NCBI GenBank assembly: GCA_038043805.1 | Contig: JBBTBG010000003.1 | Span: forward strand, 1-42,606 | Source of the DNA: Nanobdellota archaeon | GTDB taxonomy: Archaea > Nanobdellota > Nanobdellia > Pacearchaeales > GW2011-AR1 | Reading direction: 5' to 3' | Length of the DNA: 42,606 nt | Shown: one piece after another, positions 3,579-29,754 of the stretch | How positions within the stretch are numbered: the first letter of the stretch is position 1 | Layout: the number at the start of each line of letters is the position of its first letter | Position numbers and translations under genes: made by a program | The notes under the pieces: model-generated | Told to the model about the DNA's origin: nothing | Seen by the model: only the letters and a program-made list of their open reading frames with translations | The model's database searches: none

Positions 3579-4284
3579 TGTAATTTTATGGAGCCTCTTT
3601 TTTATTTCTTTCGTTGCAGGAGCAACCACTCTCGAAGCTCCTTCAACCATTTCTCTTAAGAATGTATTTACTGTAAAGATCAGCGCAGATACTGTTGAGA
3701 AACATGATGTTAAAATATATATTCGTAACGATTCAGATGCCATTCTTTCAGAGATTCAAGATGGGAACTGGAAAAATGGAAGGTATTATGTTAATGATGC
3801 CTATCCTGAGAAAAAGGAATATATCTTGCGTGCGATTTCTTTTGCAACACCAGTACATCTCTGTGTCAAATTAAGACTTTCAGAAAAAAGAAAGACAAAA
3901 CCTCCAACACCTGAATTCTGTATAGCCATTATCCTCAAGAATCAAGAAGACCCTCTTCCAAAAAATACTTCTAAAGAGACGTCATCAAATGAAAACGATC
4001 CAGAAGAAAAGGTAAAATCCACTCAATTAAAAAATAATTCCAGGCAGAAAAATGCATTACCCTCTCCTTCCATAACTCTTTCTCTTGAGAATACTTCCTC
4101 TCAAGTCGAATCTCAAGAGGAAAAAATAGCCCTCTATCAACCGAAGTCAACAGGAAGAGTTATTATTAATTCACAGGAAAAAGTACATTTTGGGATGATG
4201 GCTACATTTTTTGTGTTTGCTATAAGCATTCTCATCTGGATAGTTAGAAAGGATAGGATAAGAAGAGAGCAGGAGAACATTTAA
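3532..4284 (+). CDS. Type-I membrane surface protein (signal/anchor, beta-rich ectodomain, S/T/E/N-rich stalk, C-terminal TM)
   Basis: The frame is open from 3382, but the first 150 nt overlap the nuclease gene. ATG 3532 precedes a hydrophobic signal VTVIFSVILWSLFFISFVAGA. A C-terminal TM (MMATFFVFAISILIWIV) is followed by a basic stop-transfer RKDRIRR. No motif recognised. Confidence 0.5.
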   Translation: MSITKLFTLKVTVIFSVILWSLFFISFVAGATTLEAPSTISLKNVFTVKISADTVEKHDVKIYIRNDSDAILSEIQDGNWKNGRYYVNDAYPEKKEYILRAISFATPVHLCVKLRLSEKRKTKPPTPEFCIAIILKNQEDPLPKNTSKETSSNENDPEEKVKSTQLKNNSRQKNALPSPSITLSLENTSSQVESQEEKIALYQPKSTGRVIINSQEKVHFGMMATFFVFAISILIWIVRKDRIRREQENI

Positions 4285-4308
4285 AAGAGGAAACATGTAT
4301 TGCTCTGC

Positions 4309-4833
4309 ATGAAAAAGATCAAAGCACGCATGATTCTAGAAATTTTGGGGCGCCCACCAGAGCATATTCAAGAAGCAATGACTGCTTTATTACAAAGGCT
4401 AAAAAGTGAGCCCGGCGTGAAAATTCTTGAAGAAACGCATAACCATGTTGTTCCTGTAGAAGAAAACAAGGATTTTTTTACTACATTTTCTGAGATAGTT
4501 TTTGAAGTAGATAGTTTAACGATGTATTATGGTGTTATTTTTGCGTACATGCCTTCTAACGTAGAAGTGCTTTCACCTCAAGAAGTAGTCATGGCAAATG
4601 CAGACTTAAATGAGATCACTGGTATTCTTACACAGAGGCTTCATGATTACGATTCTATTGCAAAAAGAATGGTAAGTGAACGCCACATTTTAGAGCAGAA
4701 ACTCCGAGAAGTTGCTCCTCACCTCTTCCAGCAAGCTCCTTCACAGACTGTTGGGCAACAATCAGCCATTTCCGATTCCAAGGAAAACAGGAAGAAAAAT
4801 AAAGCAAAAAGCAAGTCCAAGAAGAAATCTTAG
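4309..4833 (+). CDS. Hypothetical cytoplasmic protein with a Lys-rich C-terminal tail
   Basis: The ORF track starts at TTG 4300; the first ATG is at 4309 (MKKIKARMILEILG). An alpha/beta N-terminal half is followed by a helical segment and a KNRKKNKAKSKSKKKS tail. No family recognised. Confidence 0.5.
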   Translation: MKKIKARMILEILGRPPEHIQEAMTALLQRLKSEPGVKILEETHNHVVPVEENKDFFTTFSEIVFEVDSLTMYYGVIFAYMPSNVEVLSPQEVVMANADLNEITGILTQRLHDYDSIAKRMVSERHILEQKLREVAPHLFQQAPSQTVGQQSAISDSKENRKKNKAKSKSKKKS

Positions 4834-6059
4834 GGGATATGTTCAGCTTCTTTTATTTTTTTAGAAAGAGGATTACTTTCAGGCTTAGTTTTTTTATACT
4901 TCCAATATAAATATCCAAGACCTAGGATAACAAGGATTGCAAGAACATATCCTAATGCAGAGCTCCCACTTCCTTCCTCTTTTTCCTTTTCCTTACAAGT
5001 TCCAGTGCAACAGATGCCTTCTTGGCTAATATTAGTGCTACCTACACAATGCTGGCTCGTGGTGCATAATGAGCCTCCGAGCTCACTGCAACGATAGAGC
5101 AAAGAAGAATCATTGACATTGCTTATATTTTCATAAGGTTTTTCTACAAAATCTATTTTAATAGGGAGAAGAACATTCAAATCTCCAGAGCGAGCAGAAA
5201 TTTCATCTTGAATGCGAATGCCGTCTTCTGCTTTAAGGAGGCGAAGGGTATATGTTTGATTTTCTCCAGGATCTAAATTGACTGTTTCATCAGGAGAAAG
5301 AGAAAACATATCTGAAGAATAAGTAATGAGAATCTTTTTCAGAGGTTCTTTTCCAGTATTGACCACTTTGAACGTTATAGTCTTATTTTTTTCCTTCAAT
5401 GAAAAAGTTTTACTAAGATAAGTAGGAGTAAATGCAAACGAAGTTGTCGAAGAAACAATTGATGATGCTTGAGTAAAGTAAACAGGAATACTATAAGAGC
5501 CAACACCAATTTTTTTTACTTGCGCTTCTGCAACATTTTCAAAAGGAAATTTTATAACGTTATCTCCAGGCGCAAGAACAATATCGTGCTTTTGAGGAAA
5601 ATCAATAGAAATAGTGAGAGGTTCATCACGGTAGAGTTGAATATGCATCTGGAATTCTCCTTCACTAATAACAAATCCTGGAGAGATGCTATATGCTGTG
5701 AGATTTCCTTGCACTGAAAAATTCTGTCTGAATTCTATTTTCTTAGGGATTCCAGAAACAGTTGTCGCAACATCTTTTATTATTAACGTATAATTTTGAG
5801 CAATTTTAGAGGCAAGAGCCCAAAGATAGTACTTATCTCCGAGTTTCTTTAAGTCATAAACCATTGGCACTTCTTGTACATTTCCTGTACGAATAAAAGA
5901 AACTTGTTTCACAGAGAGAGATTCAACGATATTTCCTGAAAAATAAAAAATCATTGTTTCTCCAGGCGCATAGATAGCTTTCATATCAGTACTCATAGAG
6001 AGCGTCAAAGGGATAAAGAATATCATAACAAGCGCAAAAAAAACAATTCTTTTTCTCAT
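4830..6059 (-). CDS. Surface protein: signal peptide, Ig/CARDB-like beta domains, Cys-rich juxtamembrane module, C-terminal TM
   Basis: 409 aa with an N-terminal signal (IVFFALVMIFFIPLTLS). A CARDB-like segment is present (FKVVNTGKEPLKKILITYSS...LDPGENQTYTL). The Cys module is CSELGGSLCTTSQHCVGSTNISQEGICCTGTC, followed by the TM LGYVLAILVILGLGYLYW. A TATA box lies ~26 nt upstream of the ATG. Confidence 0.6.
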   Translation of the reverse strand: MRKRIVFFALVMIFFIPLTLSMSTDMKAIYAPGETMIFYFSGNIVESLSVKQVSFIRTGNVQEVPMVYDLKKLGDKYYLWALASKIAQNYTLIIKDVATTVSGIPKKIEFRQNFSVQGNLTAYSISPGFVISEGEFQMHIQLYRDEPLTISIDFPQKHDIVLAPGDNVIKFPFENVAEAQVKKIGVGSYSIPVYFTQASSIVSSTTSFAFTPTYLSKTFSLKEKNKTITFKVVNTGKEPLKKILITYSSDMFSLSPDETVNLDPGENQTYTLRLLKAEDGIRIQDEISARSGDLNVLLPIKIDFVEKPYENISNVNDSSLLYRCSELGGSLCTTSQHCVGSTNISQEGICCTGTCKEKEKEEGSGSSALGYVLAILVILGLGYLYWKYKKTKPESNPLSKKIKEAEHIP

Positions 6060-17672: not shown

Positions 17673-18623
17673 ATGGCAAAGTTATCCAATCCGCATGCAG
17701 GAAGTCTGCAATTCTGGCCTCGTAAGAGAGCCGCAAAAATCGTTCCTAGTGTGAACTGGAGTGTTGTTAAAGGAAAAGATAAAACCTCTGGAATATTAGG
17801 ATTTCTAGCATATAAAGCAGCAATGGCCACAGCGTTAGTTAAAGATACAACTTCTGACTCTCTCTCAAAAGGAAAGAAAATATATCTTCCTGTGACAATT
17901 CTTGAAGTTCCTCACTTAAAGATTTTTTCTATTCGTTTTTATAAAAATAGTATTGTTATGAAAGATGTGATTGTTTCTCAAGATAAAGAACTAAAAAAAC
18001 TTCTCAGACTTCCTAAAGATCTCAAAACTTTCGAATCTCAAATTCCTCAAGGCTATGACGACTTAAGGCTGATAGTTTACTCCTTGGCAAAACAAACTTC
18101 CATCAAAAAAACACCTGACCTTGCAGAAGTAGGTATAAGAGCAGAAAACAAACTAGAATTTGTAAAGACTCTTATCGGAAAAGAGATTACCTTAAAAGAT
18201 TTTTTACAATACAATTTATTAGATATGCGCGGATTGACAACTGGAAGAGGTCTTTCAGGTCCAGTCAAGCGATTCGGCATAACCTTAAAACAGCATAAAA
18301 CAGAAAAAGGCGTTCGCCGTCCAGGTTCTTTGGCTCCTTGGCATCCAGCACGCGTCACCTTCAGAACACCTCAAGCAGGTCAACTCGGCATGTTCACTCG
18401 TGTACACTACAATCTCAATGTTATCTCTTCAGGATCTATTGCAGAAAAAAATATCAATCCAGGAACAGGATTCAAACATTACGGAAAAATAAGATCTGAC
18501 TATCTTATTATTAAAGGAAGCGTTCAAGGTCCAGTCAAGCGTCAAATTCTTCTTACTCCTTCATTCCGCCCAACAAAACTCACAGCTAAAAGAAAATATG
18601 AATTTCAGGAGCTCATAACATGA
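17673..18623 (+). CDS. rpl3: Ribosomal protein uL3
   Basis: N-terminal PHAGSLQFWPRKRA, with the expected length and operon position. Confidence 0.95.
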   Translation: MAKLSNPHAGSLQFWPRKRAAKIVPSVNWSVVKGKDKTSGILGFLAYKAAMATALVKDTTSDSLSKGKKIYLPVTILEVPHLKIFSIRFYKNSIVMKDVIVSQDKELKKLLRLPKDLKTFESQIPQGYDDLRLIVYSLAKQTSIKKTPDLAEVGIRAENKLEFVKTLIGKEITLKDFLQYNLLDMRGLTTGRGLSGPVKRFGITLKQHKTEKGVRRPGSLAPWHPARVTFRTPQAGQLGMFTRVHYNLNVISSGSIAEKNINPGTGFKHYGKIRSDYLIIKGSVQGPVKRQILLTPSFRPTKLTAKRKYEFQELIT

Positions 18624-18666
18624 AAATTGGATGCAGGGTGTTGAGAGACCAGCAGGTGGTTTTCAC

Positions 18667-19461
18667 ATGAAAGCACAACTCTATTCAATAGATGGTGAGA
18701 AAAAATCAAATATAGATCTTCCAGATTTATTTAACACCCTTATTCGAGAAGACTTGGCTGCAAAAGTATTTGAAGCTGAAAAATATAAACGCATGCAACC
18801 CTATGCAGGTTACAAAGAAGCAGGAAAGAGACATTCAGCCTCTGGAACGATTAGTCATATGCGTCATACTTGGAAAGGACATTATGGTAAGGGTATCGCT
18901 CGCTTACCAAGAAAAACAATGTATCGACGTGGTACACAATTCTTCTGGGTGGGTGCAGAAGTTTCTCAAACTCGTGGTGGAAGAAGCGCGCATCCTCCGT
19001 TAGGTGTTCATCGACCAAGAAAAATTAATGAAAAAGAACTTCGCATTGCGATACATACTGCTTTCGCAGCAACAACAAACAAAGAAGCACTAGTAAAGAG
19101 ATACGCGACTCTCGCAGCAGCCAAAGATCTTCCTCAAGTTCCATTCATTATAGAATCTCTTCCTCAAAAAACAAAGGAGCTTCATGCAACTATTAATAAG
19201 ATGCTAGGCACTCTTGCTTCACTTGCATTTAAGAGAAAAGAAGTCCGCTCAGGCATCGGAAAACGCAGAGGAAGAAAATATAAGTCAACCGCAGGGCTAC
19301 TCATAGTTAAGGGAAGAACAGAAAAACAAACTTATAGTGGTGTTGATATAAAATCAGTCACAGAAATCTCAATGCATGATCTCTATCCTCTAGGAAGACT
19401 TACACTTTACACACAACAAGCTCTTAAGGAATTACAAGAACAGGAGAAAAAACATGCTTAA
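18667..19461 (+). CDS. rpl4: Ribosomal protein uL4
   Basis: Position after rpl3. ATG 18667 is preceded by an AGGTGG Shine-Dalgarno. The ORF-track start at 18631 is an upstream in-frame extension. Confidence 0.9.
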   Translation: MKAQLYSIDGEKKSNIDLPDLFNTLIREDLAAKVFEAEKYKRMQPYAGYKEAGKRHSASGTISHMRHTWKGHYGKGIARLPRKTMYRRGTQFFWVGAEVSQTRGGRSAHPPLGVHRPRKINEKELRIAIHTAFAATTNKEALVKRYATLAAAKDLPQVPFIIESLPQKTKELHATINKMLGTLASLAFKRKEVRSGIGKRRGRKYKSTAGLLIVKGRTEKQTYSGVDIKSVTEISMHDLYPLGRLTLYTQQALKELQEQEKKHA

Positions 19462-19694: not shown

Positions 19695-20072
19695 ATGATA
19701 AAACAAATACTTGAATACGCGCCTGTAACTTCTGAACAACCTACATTGGTTACATATGCTTCTGATTTGCTAAACCTCTCTCCTGGAACAGATGTGAAAG
19801 TGTGTCATATAGGAACTCTTCCTGTTTCACAGCAGACCAGAGATGTGTGGACATTTTACGAGGCAGTAGGAGAAGACAAAGACAGAGTCAGACTTCTTCA
19901 ACGTGTTTTTCCTCGAGAGATTCACATGCTGGCAGCCAATGTGATGAGGGTTACCACTTCTGCAAGAGGTCTTATTTTCCAGAGTGGATTCGACCACCTT
20001 ATTTATATGCCAGATGAAAGAAAAGTCGCCTTTCCCATAGTTGATAAATTCCTCAGGGGGTTCGGCAAGTAA
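19695..20072 (+). CDS. Orphan 125-aa protein embedded between rpl23 and rpl2 (function unknown)
   Basis: ATG lies 1 nt after the rpl23 stop, and its TAA lies 1 nt before the rpl2 ATG. No recognisable motif. Composition (9 Arg, 6 Lys) is unlike the Lys-rich flanking r-proteins. Confidence 0.6.
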   Translation: MIKQILEYAPVTSEQPTLVTYASDLLNLSPGTDVKVCHIGTLPVSQQTRDVWTFYEAVGEDKDRVRLLQRVFPREIHMLAANVMRVTTSARGLIFQSGFDHLIYMPDERKVAFPIVDKFLRGFGK

Positions 20073-27909: not shown

Positions 27910-28728
27910 ATGGCTGAAAATGATACAATTAATACTATGAAAGACCTTATCGAGGCAACTCCTGAAGAAGTAGCTAAGCTTGAAAAGCAACAGGAAGAAC
28001 AAGCCGCGAGGCTTAGAGAAGAAGAACGTCCTCTCACTAAATCTCAAAGAAAAGCTCAACGGGATGAAGAAAATGAAAAAAAAGCACTTGCTGCATGGGT
28101 TCCCAAGACAGCGTTAGGAAAGGCTGTAAAAGCTGGAAAGGAAAAAGATTTTGATGAACTTCTCACATCTCATAAGAAAATTCTTGAGAGTGAAATTGTT
28201 GATCTCTTGTTACGTTTGGAAAATGATCTGCTATTAATCGGTCAAGCAAAAGGAAAGTTTGGAGGAGGAAAGCGTAGAGCATGGAGGCAGACACAGAAAA
28301 AGACTATGGAAGGAAACGTTGTAACCTTCTCTTCCCTTGCAGTCGTAGGAGATAGGAAGGGTCATGTAGGAATAGGCATGGGTAGGGCAAAGGAAACACT
28401 TCCTTCTAGAACAAAAGCATTGCGACAAGCAAAATTGAGCATCATTAAAGTGGAGCGAGGATATGAGTCTCCAGAGGAAAAAGCATTAAAAGTCGAACCT
28501 CATACAGTCCCATTTATTGTTCAAGGAAAATGTGGTAGCATTCGTATAAAGCTAATTCCTGCACCTAGAGGAACAGGTCTGGTTGTAGGAGATGAATGCA
28601 AAAAAATACTTCGTCTTGCTGGAATTGCAGATGTCTATGCAGTAACACGTGGGCAGACACGGACGACGTTCAATGTGGCAAAAGCGTGCATAGACGCACT
28701 CAAAAAAACAAAGGAGATGCAGCTATGA
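27910..28728 (+). CDS. rps5: Ribosomal protein uS5 with a ~60-aa E/K/Q-rich N-terminal extension
   Basis: The core begins at WVPKTALGKAVKAGK...ESEIVDLLL, with a later dsRBD-like/S5 C-domain (GRAKETLPSRTKALRQAK). Confidence 0.9.
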   Translation: MAENDTINTMKDLIEATPEEVAKLEKQQEEQAARLREEERPLTKSQRKAQRDEENEKKALAAWVPKTALGKAVKAGKEKDFDELLTSHKKILESEIVDLLLRLENDLLLIGQAKGKFGGGKRRAWRQTQKKTMEGNVVTFSSLAVVGDRKGHVGIGMGRAKETLPSRTKALRQAKLSIIKVERGYESPEEKALKVEPHTVPFIVQGKCGSIRIKLIPAPRGTGLVVGDECKKILRLAGIADVYAVTRGQTRTTFNVAKACIDALKKTKEMQL

Positions 28729-29141
28729 TAATCGCAATCCGCATCTCAGGTCTCGTAGAAATGCCTCAAGCGCCGCAAGAAACATTATTCAGAATGAGGC
28801 TGCGAAGAAAATACTCGGCAATTATTTTAGAATCTACACCTTCAAACCTCAAATTGCTTCAGAGTGTGAGAAACTTTATAGCTTATGGTGATATTAATCC
28901 AGAAACACTTGCTCTTTTAGTTGAAAAACGCGGCGTTGCTATCGACAAAAAGAAAGTAGATACAAAAAAAGTGCTCGAGCAACTCGAGAAGAAAGGTCTC
29001 GAAGGTGTAGGTTTAAAACCCTTCTTCCGCCTCCATCCTCCTCGCGGAGGCATTGACAGTAAACTTCACTATCCAATTCGTGGTGGAGTTCTCGGAGATA
29101 ATAAGAAAGATATTAATGAGCTCATTGGGAGGATGTTATGA
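28725..29141 (+). CDS. rpl30: Ribosomal protein uL30
   Basis: The start MIIAIRISGLVEMPQAPQETLFRMRLRR overlaps the rps5 stop by ATGA. Confidence 0.9.
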   Translation: MIIAIRISGLVEMPQAPQETLFRMRLRRKYSAIILESTPSNLKLLQSVRNFIAYGDINPETLALLVEKRGVAIDKKKVDTKKVLEQLEKKGLEGVGLKPFFRLHPPRGGIDSKLHYPIRGGVLGDNKKDINELIGRML

Positions 29142-29253
29142 GTCATCAATCAAATGGAAGTTGTCAGCAAGACGTCAGAAATCAGAGATTCCTGAGCGCC
29201 ATTGAGAACCTTTGGTTCTCAAGGAACCGTAGGTTTCTTACTGAGGATGTTAT
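29129..29253 (+). repeat. 11-nt direct repeat GAGGATGTTAT (29129-29139 and 29243-29253) bracketing a 114-nt insertion at the rpl30/rpl15 junction
   Basis: Read directly. The two repeat starts are 114 nt apart. Deleting one repeat plus the intervening sequence gives GAGGATGTTATAAGATG, i.e. an rpl30 TAA stop, 1 nt, then the rpl15 ATG. Confidence 0.8.
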
Positions 29254-29260
29254 AAGATGA
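29138..29260 (+). CDS. Possible 40-codon micro-ORF (MSHQSNGSCQQDVRNQRFLSAIENLWFSRNRRFLTEDVIR) bridging rpl30 and rpl15
   Basis: Its ATG overlaps the rpl30 stop (ATGA at 29138-29141), and its TGA overlaps the rpl15 ATG (ATGA at 29257-29260). It is below the ORF-track size cut-off. It has 6 Arg and no Lys. Coding status is unproven. Confidence 0.3.
   Translation: MSHQSNGSCQQDVRNQRFLSAIENLWFSRNRRFLTEDVIR
29204..29239 (+). repeat. Two tandem related palindromic hairpins (GAGAACC-TTT-GGTTCTC and AAGGAACC-GTA-GGTTTCTT)
   Basis: Read directly. The first is a 7-bp perfect stem (29204-29220). The second is an 8-bp stem with one G.T pair (29221-29239). Both share the core GAACC-N3-GGTT. Confidence 0.75.
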
Positions 29261-29754
29261 AAACCAAAAAACGTTGCAAATCTTCTCGATTTAGAGGATC
29301 TCAGTCAGCGCGAAGAGGAAGGTCAGCACGCGCACGAGGTTCTGGAAACCAAGGAGGGAAAGGATGGGCTGGCACGGGCAAGCGCGGAGATCAAAAGAAT
29401 TCTCTCGTAGTCAAGATTACAGGAGGCAATAATTATTTTGGTAAAGACCAAACGCTTCGCAGAGGCACTCAACAAAAAAAACTGCAAGTCATCAATCTCT
29501 CAGACGTTCAGCAGAAAGCATCTTCTCTCACATCAAAAGACGGCTTTATCAACTTAGAAGGCTATAAGATACTAGGAGAAGGCGATATTTCTTCTCCTCT
29601 AAAAATTAAAGCAAGCGCCGCATCAAAATCAGTTCAAGAAAAAATTAAGGCAGCTAAAGGAACGCTCATTCTTCCAAGTCAAGCAGATGAAAAGAAGGTA
29701 GAAAAGAAAGAAGAAAAAGTTCCTAAGAAAAAAGCTGAGAAGAAATCAGCTTAA
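29257..29754 (+). CDS. rpl15: Ribosomal protein uL15
   Basis: Gly/Arg-rich N-terminus SRFRGSQSARRGRSARARGSGNQGGKGWAGTGKRG, in the expected position before secY. Confidence 0.9.
   Translation: MKTKKRCKSSRFRGSQSARRGRSARARGSGNQGGKGWAGTGKRGDQKNSLVVKITGGNNYFGKDQTLRRGTQQKKLQVINLSDVQQKASSLTSKDGFINLEGYKILGEGDISSPLKIKASAASKSVQEKIKAAKGTLILPSQADEKKVEKKEEKVPKKKAEKKSA

Follow-up and report, generated by a model that had tools for sequence, protein, structure and literature searches.

Why should a 115-nt spacer separate rpl30 from rpl15 in an operon whose genes otherwise abut or overlap? The stretch of DNA analysed here (42.6 kb, 38.6% G+C; hereafter the window) carries an archaeal ribosomal protein operon in the order L3, L4, L23, L2 ... 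S5, L30, L15, SecY. A preliminary description of this DNA had drawn attention to a 114-nt block between the genes for uL30 and uL15, and had offered as possible explanations a miniature mobile element, an RNA element acting on uL30/uL15 expression and a new micro-protein. Here, we argue that the block is probably repeat DNA, a composite of type-1 and type-2 hairpin repeats, two families dispersed in Pacearchaeota-like DPANN genomes, rather than a gene or a dedicated regulator, and that it is presumably tolerated by way of a stop-free frame that bridges rpl30 and rpl15. The uL30 protein has 2012 homologues, some of them named uL30 or L30, and the closest named ones come from metagenome-assembled genomes of Pacearchaeota, Nanoarchaeota or Woesearchaeota. 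Therefore, the window derives from a DPANN archaeon, and its operon is, judged by its sequence, Pacearchaeota-like.

The block and its two flanking genes are made up of the following parts, in which L-numbered labels denote comparison contigs.

28725-29141, plus strand: coding sequence of rpl30 (uL30), an open reading frame (ORF) with homologues; its stop is TGA, the C-terminal R-M-L is invariant among relatives, and the last codons, GGG AGG ATG TTA TGA, are the upstream copy of the duplicated junction.
29129-29142, plus strand: upstream copy of the direct repeat, GAGGATGTTATGAG, containing the rpl30 stop TGA and the overlapping ATG that is the start of the relay ORF.
29138-29260, plus strand: relay (bridging) ORF of 40 codons, with an ATGA overlap both with the rpl30 stop and with the rpl15 start; its predicted peptide has 6 Arg and 0 Lys.
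29152-29172, plus strand: 5' box of the type-1 repeat, AAATGGAAGTTGTCAGCAAGA, matching the box in L006-L008 and in L046 (95% identity over 21 nt to L046 by blastn); consensus AAGGGAAGTTG-n-CAAG.
29171-29223, plus strand: type-2 double-hairpin repeat nested within the type-1 copy (blastn to L019, E = 6e-5), composed of hairpin X (29176-29183/29187-29194), the linker TGAGCGCC (29193-29200) and hairpin Y (29202-29210/29214-29222).
29212-29244, plus strand: 3' part of the type-1 repeat, with the hairpin AAGGAACC (29221-29228), a GTA loop and GGTTTCTT (29232-29239), then AC; 27.1 bits with the covariance model R1 described below, E about 1e-4 to 8e-4.
29243-29256, plus strand: downstream copy of the direct repeat, GAGGATGTTATAAG, with the original junction sequence and a Shine-Dalgarno (SD)-like GAGG for rpl15; compared below with the empty sites of relatives.
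29257-29754, plus strand: coding sequence of rpl15 (uL15), an ORF with its ATG at 29257; Pfam PF00828 matches an identical product.

The direct repeat, the hairpins, the 40-codon bridging ORF and the Arg and Lys counts of the preliminary description are all where it had placed them. Two exact copies of the repeat, GAGGATGTTAT, lie at 29129-29139 and 29243-29253, and the match can be extended to 13 of 14 positions over 29129-29142 versus 29243-29256. The two GAACC-N3-GGTT cores (29206-29217 and 29224-29235) belong to hairpin Y and to the hairpin at 29221-29239, and a third hairpin, the imperfect hairpin X, had been overlooked. No terminal inverted repeats join both ends of the insert. In L006-L008, the 5' box of type 1 directly adjoins the type-1 hairpin, whereas ~52 nt separate the box from the hairpin (29221-29241) in the window. 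Because the piece that separates them matches the type-2 family, the window copy is a composite of two families, and the two hairpins that had seemed to be related units come from different ones, hairpin Y from type 2 and the hairpin at 29221-29239 from type 1.

Is the block real, and does the window on its own reveal what it is? Three independent assemblies have an identical block sequence, and a fourth contig (L003) has the 3' part of the block at its end, with one single-nucleotide polymorphism (SNP), T to G at 29242; therefore, it is not an assembly artefact. Three Logan contigs (L001, L002 and L003), all with an identical rpl15, break 31-223 nt upstream of rpl15, in or near the insert, and these breaks may reflect strain heterogeneity or repeat-induced assembly breaks. 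Over 20.4 kb, the window and L004 are 99.76% identical; 41 of their 49 differences are confined to 117 nt of rpl30 (28917-29033), ~100 nt upstream of the insert, which suggests a short tract acquired by recombination with a divergent relative. Taken alone, the 11-nt repeat is weakly significant (it is reached by 10 of 2000 shuffles of the local region), and nine short-range repeats of at least 11 nt are present in the 42.6-kb window. The fold energy of the insert is unexceptional (z = -1.62), and an Rfam search of the region with E up to 10 gave no family match, only chance-level snoRNA-like matches. The significance of the insert comes from the comparison with relatives and not from the window by itself.

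For this comparison, we fetched contigs with L30 proteins 80-93% identical to that of the window and read their junctions directly. The junction is compact in five lineages, in which it ends in GGAGGATGTTATAA or in ...TTGTAA. In four of these (L005, L010, L011 and L012/L014), the rpl15 ATG follows after 0-1 nt, and in L009 a DUF5680-like gene (1016-1435; Pfam match on the product) follows L30 instead of rpl15. Judged from a similar N-terminus, a DUF5680-like gene also follows rpl30 in L090. L005, with GGAGGATGTTATAA-ATG, has the compact empty site that the preliminary description had predicted by deleting one repeat copy together with the intervening sequence. Other relatives have filled sites. 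L006, L007 and L008, with identical L30 proteins, have a homologous insert built from the 36-nt unit AAGGGAAGTTGTCAGCAAGAAACCGTAGCTATGGTA, present in two copies in L006 and L007 and in three in L008, while L015, L016 and L018 have a 67-nt homologous insert at L30/L15 with AGGAGGATGTTAT on either flank. The L30 stop is TGA (making ATGA) in all filled sites and TAA in all empty ones. At the S5/L30 junction of L015, a homologous element is flanked by the 16-nt repeat GGAGATGTTATCATGA; it is present as one unit in L015 and as three tandem 71-nt units in L016 and L018. When L30 DNA was placed in a neighbour-joining tree, the filled L015 and the empty L010 came out as sisters with 100% support, and the group of the window, L004 and L006 falls in a 100% clade with the empty L005 and L009. 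Filled and empty lineages interleave; therefore, there have been at least two gains, or several precise losses via the repeat. Thus, sister genomes provide both empty sites and inserts with one to three tandem units at this junction, and the claim of an insertion signature stands on these alleles; the 11-nt repeat on which it had originally been based is weak alone, and the length of the duplication varies from site to site.

How often is such a junction occupied, and by what? In a survey of 80 related species genomes, S5/L30 could be measured at 79 loci; it is compact at all except two, with an ATGA overlap at 58, and both exceptions carry the repeat. The L30/L15 junction is compact in 33 genomes, holds a coupled small zinc-ribbon gene in at least 32 of the 80 and holds various inserted genes in others. 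The L30-L15 gaps were checked and are real rather than misplaced L15 starts, and most of them are accounted for by the zinc-ribbon gene. The rpl30-rpl15 junction is a hot spot in general, and whatever occupies it is tightly coupled. An occupant found at exactly this junction in so many genomes could in principle have decayed in place, making the block a remnant of the zinc-ribbon gene. We give this explanation next to no credence: the insert has neither protein nor DNA similarity to zinc-ribbon genes, it matches repeat families at unrelated loci, and the junctions of the closest relatives are clean and compact.

The zinc-ribbon protein itself varies between roughly 55 and 105 aa, mostly about 60-90, and has the motif WECxCG...PxECxxC and an acidic or basic tail. 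Coupled at both ends, its gene stands directly after rpl30 in L019, L022, L023, L026, L028 and at least 27 more of L017-L096; it gives only sub-threshold rubredoxin-like Pfam matches and is absent from the clade of the window. Besides the DUF5680-like genes of L009 and L090, unrelated inserted ORFs are found at L30/L15 in further genomes. Various other ribosomal-operon junctions in the clade hold unannotated ORFan genes of 80-142 aa, most with ATGA overlaps at both ends (window 19695-20072; L015 194-556, 4013-4414 and 4809-5168; L012 4810-5238; L005 811-1059; L006 1899-2141; L009 345-602). Two ORFans at L14/L24 are distantly related (E = 7e-7), and two at L23/L2 are not related. Pfam gave no matches to these neighbouring-junction genes, and no link between them and the repeats was established.

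What, then, is the inserted DNA? Each half of the insert is related to many sequences in other genomes, which have different flanks and lie in both orientations, and on this point the suggestion of a miniature mobile element is supported. The expectation of copies elsewhere was correct for other genomes; the window itself yielded no further copies in searches by blastn with the insert, by nhmmer and by the covariance model. Type 1 is a ~40-nt core consisting of AAGGGAAGTTGA-n-CAAG, a 7-9 bp hairpin and CTTAC. An exact 38-nt core, AAGGGAAGTTGTCAGCAAGAAACCGTAGGTTTCTTACG, recurs at the SecY/DUF106 junction of L046, in which the L30 protein is about 61% identical; L046 also has degenerate type-1 copies at S5/L30 and against the SecY start (in the SecY leader), and L029 has a copy at another junction, flanked by GAAATAAGATGA. 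Metagenome contigs scanned for the pattern gave 22 loci, and the covariance model R1, built from 15 copies, identified 42 type-1 copies (37 distinct) elsewhere, from 25 sources, at E below 1e-3. Eight of the copies, in both orientations, lie on the 12.7-kb contig L110. Several of these are preceded by a second box, GGGGTTGATTG, and L110 also encodes an rve-family integrase (4123-4977), two nucleotidyltransferases and an NYN-domain gene, the integrase without a link to the repeat.

Type-1 copies are found in very different contexts: in canonical tRNA introns, in which the repeat is antisense (ARAGORN with introns; the window has no tRNA genes); in a 491-nt 23S rRNA intron and, in a second contig, elsewhere within the homologous intron; in a terminal loop of an RT-16 RNA (RF03019); in 5' leaders, 0-4 nt before start codons; and at gene junctions. 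In L098 (186-394, minus strand), the RT-16 RNA is full-length (90.6 bits), with ~70 nt of type-1 repeat (two copies) inserted in a terminal loop. In L105 (minus strand; oriented 2043-2084), a 491-aa ORF enters a type-1 copy and ends at the hairpin-loop TAG, and the next gene starts a few bases past the repeat; from its N-terminus, our guess is that this ORF encodes a tRNA synthetase.

The type-1 hairpin has the form AAG[R]nACC - loop - GGT[Y]nCTT. In an alignment of the 37 distinct copies that was fitted to the model, 97.6% of its cells are paired, and four of its eight pairs have changed on both sides, values that none of 500 shuffles reached. Conserved pairing with compensatory changes is also what would be seen if the repeat were a domesticated cis-acting RNA, i.e., a reusable module with hairpins that function in the operon mRNA as a processing or stability determinant, as a protein-binding site or as a brake on the level of uL15/SecY relative to the upstream genes. 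Such a function would fit with the findings that copies in protein-coding contexts within ~40 nt of a same-strand start are all in sense, several ending 0-4 nt before the ATG, that an identical 38-nt core is present in genomes with L30 proteins about 61% identical, and that the insert persists in several lineages. However, the core is antisense in tRNA introns, occupies varied 23S intron positions and lies in a noncoding RNA (ncRNA) loop, contexts to which a role in mRNA is inapplicable; type-2 copies are in both orientations; the insert is missing in close relatives and has no Rfam match; and a selfish palindromic repeat would also conserve a hairpin that it needs for mobility. We consider domestication unlikely, and the more specific proposal of an RNA regulator dedicated to uL30/uL15 is not supported, as the core is also found in tRNA and rRNA introns, in the ncRNA loop and upstream of unrelated genes. 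Most likely, conservation of the hairpin reflects the repeat's own needs, mobility or recombination; some hairpins may have a co-opted RNA function.

A few other identities were considered and rejected. A viral or vector origin was dismissed, as either repeat pattern gave 0 matches in a viral contig collection. Inspection of the core by eye revealed no archaeal TATA box or B-recognition element at the right distance from the adjacent ATGs, as a promoter would have. For a C/D-box small RNA, there are CTGA motifs only, with no C box and no Rfam support.

Type 2, the nested component, consists of hairpin X, a linker TGAGCGC(C/A) and hairpin Y. Its copies are in both orientations and are found at no fewer than eight other loci, in L019 (blastn E = 6e-5), L042 (at S17/L14), L046, L011, L100, L101 and L116. 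Among the repeat copies found, of whichever family, singlets and direct tandem arrays are in the majority. In an intergenic region of L046 (16181-16294), two type-2 double hairpins are inverted around a central GACGCCGTC, the one clear inverted pair, in a layout like that of the REPINs, doublets of bacterial repetitive extragenic palindromic (REP) elements.

Are there comparable inserts in the same operon? The statement that its genes abut or overlap everywhere else applies to nearly all junctions; L3/L4 is interrupted by a shorter insert of the same design.

18618-18672: second junction insert, at L3/L4, 47 nt, flanked by the 8-nt repeat ACATGAAA.
18620-18670: L3/L4 relay ORF, MKIGCRVLRDQQVVFT, 16 codons, with ATGA overlaps with the L3 stop and the L4 start.

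The core of this insert, GGGTGTTGAGAGACCAGCAGGTGG, has one mismatch to the common 3' end of both L046 junction inserts. Alternatively, L4 could start at 18631, with a 12-aa extension supplied by the element. The two L046 junction inserts have their last 45 nt in common, including ATGAAAG, and ATGAAAG is also present at the L3/L4 insert of the window; together, these matches hint at microhomology-driven copying between similar junctions.

If the block is repeat DNA, how can it be accommodated inside an operon of this kind? Every same-strand junction copy carries a mini-ORF of 16 to 76 aa that starts at most 3 nt from the upstream stop and ends at most 3 nt from the downstream start.

Window, L30/L15: mini-ORF of 40 aa.
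L007 and L008, L30/L15: mini-ORFs of 33 and 45 aa, respectively.
L015, L30/L15: mini-ORF of about 22-23 aa.
L015, S5/L30: mini-ORF of 24 aa, one per tandem unit.
L029, junction copy: mini-ORF of 25 aa.
L046, SecY/DUF106: mini-ORF of 76 aa.
L046, S5/L30: mini-ORF of 46 aa.
L042, S17/L14 (type 2): mini-ORF of 35 aa.
Window, L3/L4: mini-ORF of 16 aa.

When the interiors were shuffled, they remained stop-free with P = 0.007-0.24 each in seven cases (6% of shuffled interiors for the window insert), before the further one-in-three requirement on length is counted. The proposal that the ORF could preserve translational coupling is the part of the preliminary description that the comparison strengthened most. 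The frame that is kept open is not the same everywhere. Some copies read the core as KGSCQQETVGFL, others as GKLSARNRRFL; the frame with ETVGFL is used in L006-L008 and in the S5/L30 copy of L015, and the frame with NRRFL in the window, in the L30/L15 copy of L015 and in L046. In the third frame, the loop TAG is a stop, and it is this TAG that serves as the upstream gene's stop in L105. The conserved feature is openness and register, not the peptide.

This use of a shared core in different frames argues against a micro-protein, i.e., a real gene with a functional 40-aa product. Such a gene would account for the open frame with an SD-like sequence upstream, for the homologous 33- and 45-aa ORFs that are called as genes in ENA contigs, and for the single SNP (L003, 29242), which is synonymous in the relay frame. 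By contrast, it would not be expected to change frame from lineage to lineage, to range from 22 to 76 aa through tandem units with no common sequence or conserved motif, or to lie in the same DNA that is also present in non-coding contexts; there is also no Pfam match, and no called gene with this 40-aa product is on record. The frame changes largely refute this reading, and we regard it as very improbable.

A different way to accommodate the block would be its removal from the operon mRNA as a bulge-helix-bulge (BHB) intron, excised by the splicing endonuclease to yield the compact junction. Deletion of one repeat copy and the insert does recreate that junction, and bona fide tRNA introns, as well as a 23S rRNA intron, contain the same core. 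However, a scan across the insert boundaries for the BHB motif (3-nt bulges around a 4-bp helix), which found the canonical motif in a control pre-tRNA-Ser, placed the junction inserts at or below shuffle expectation. No candidate was common to the lineages, none was found in L015 or L029 at strict settings, and the sole window candidate consists mostly of G-U pairs and would change the uL30 C-terminus. Moreover, the block stays open in every lineage, which argues against its removal from the mRNA, as a spliced block needs no open frame and would leave nothing to hold the bridging frames open. Splicing is, in our view, exceedingly unlikely to explain the block.

We therefore return to repeat DNA tolerated through a bridging frame and suggest the following scenario. 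A type-1 copy would have entered a tight rpl30-rpl15 junction, duplicating the ~14-nt junction GAGGATGTTATAAG, and the type-2 double hairpin would have nested into this type-1 copy later. The upstream duplicate would still encode the end of uL30, a TAA to TGA change making the overlapping ATG, and the downstream duplicate would still supply the ribosome-binding site of rpl15. Duplication across an overlapping stop-start junction would automatically provide the insert with a start codon and a stop codon, the start codon being either a copy of the downstream start or one made by the TAA to TGA change. Ribosomes that end uL30 would restart at the overlapping ATG, cross the three hairpins, stop at the TGA overlapping the rpl15 ATG and restart there. 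An insert of fitting length with an open frame would in this way hand ribosomes over by termination-reinitiation. Because the insert lies within an essential, translationally coupled operon, it would be tolerated only with a stop-free frame from the rpl30 stop to the rpl15 start.

Several points weigh against this explanation or parts of it. That the relay ORF is translated, and that selection for coupling keeps the frame open, we infer from sequence. The relay ORF and rpl15 each have an SD-like GAGG, and rpl15 could be initiated independently, in which case the open frame would be less important. Real genes at these junctions are tightly coupled as well, making coupling a property of the operon and not of the element. 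The covariation was counted on a model-fitted alignment and so leans to structure, and the 42.6-kb window contains just one type-1 and one type-2 copy. Regarding movement, the flanking duplications are of 8, 11-14, 12, 13-15 and 16 nt at different junctions and of ~5 nt in L102, and the intron and intergenic copies have none. The family consensus has an internal hairpin and asymmetric ends, AAGGGAAG... and ...CTTAC, with no terminal inverted repeats, and no credible partner transposase was seen on the contig fragments examined, in which no search was aimed at RAYTs (REP-associated tyrosine transposases). With no terminal inverted repeats, varying duplications and no partner transposase, transposition is no more than a candidate mechanism, and spread via microhomology-mediated recombination between similar SD-stop-start junctions is equally possible.

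A broader idea can be put forward tentatively, and we hold it to be possible rather than probable. The hairpin repeats could represent a mobile-element lineage specialised for ultra-compact DPANN genomes, which colonises the small number of sites that can accept additional DNA, namely overlapping stop-start junctions, introns, ncRNA loops and short leaders. At junctions, it would duplicate the module of stop, Shine-Dalgarno sequence and start, creating relay cistrons that are transparent to coupling, and tandem growth of these cistrons could feed the 80-142-aa ORFans. The tandem relay cistrons are of 22, 24 (three times), 33, 45 and 76 codons.

Some of the smallest known genomes, and some of those most densely packed with genes, belong to DPANN archaea, and one would not expect repeats to do well in them. 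The locus shows where small repeats can persist in compact genomes and the apparent constraint that they meet: insertion into the most conserved operon of the cell is apparently tolerated if a stop-free frame passes ribosomes from gene to gene. If true, such inserts provide a natural comparative handle on translational coupling by termination-reinitiation in archaea, and should new small proteins arise from the tandem growth of relay ORFs, the inserts would provide a concrete route to de novo genes. They also carry a warning for annotation, as mini-ORFs of this kind get called as genes, and the repeats interrupt tRNA, rRNA and ncRNA genes and break assemblies. The view of uL30 and uL15 themselves is unchanged.

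How do these repeats compare with known systems? In the papers searched on introns, repeats and miniature transposable elements with inverted repeats (MITEs) in DPANN archaea or Pacearchaeota, and on repeats and translational coupling, we found no prior description of the family. Transposed or mobile tRNA introns occur in Thermoproteales, in which, as here, related sequences recur in the introns of different archaeal tRNA genes. Unlike those introns, the present repeat makes up only part of the intron, lies in either orientation and is also found in mRNAs and intergenic DNA, and its mRNA copies have no BHB motif.

The MITEs of operons (Correia/CREE, ERIC, RUP, BOX and archaeal MITEs; PMC10969869) are likewise small non-autonomous repeats with flanking direct repeats, insertion polymorphism among close relatives and transcribed intergenic positions. 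The archaeal cases given there are limited to Sulfolobus, Halobacterium, Haloquadratum, Desulfurococcus and "several other archaeal genomes", with DPANN unmentioned (PMC10969869). Multiple dispersed copies with different flanks, as expected of a MITE-like element, are present; however, the present repeats have neither terminal inverted repeats nor a fixed duplication length, no related insertion sequence was identified, and they are much shorter. Rickettsia palindromic elements (RPEs; PMC10969869) resemble them in another respect, being palindromic repeats of a reduced, gene-dense genome that survive by translational openness and encode a segment without conserved function. RPEs, by contrast, are about 150 bp long and lie in frame within protein genes, whereas the present repeats are of 40-60 nt, lie between an overlapping stop and start and form a separate relay cistron, occasionally supplying a gene's last codons and stop (as in L105).

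In form, the closest counterparts are the REP and REPIN elements of bacteria, which are mobilised by RAYTs (PMC3116915, PMC3337134). Both they and the present repeats are short (about 20-60 nt) imperfect palindromes that are dispersed, multi-copy and located between genes inside transcription units, with a conserved hairpin of varying stem sequence. Singlets and tandem clusters occur, and so, in L046 (16181-16294), does an inverted pair of type-2 copies that looks like a REPIN. The present repeats differ in being archaeal (DPANN) and in having no identified partner gene, the searches not having been aimed at RAYTs. They differ further in that their junction copies have target duplications of ~5 to 16 nt, whereas the single-strand mechanism of REP and IS200-type elements makes none, and in that some copies are located within tRNA and rRNA introns and mini-ORFs read through copies. 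Lacking the terminal inverted repeats and the fixed duplication length of MITEs, the family is REP-like in form.

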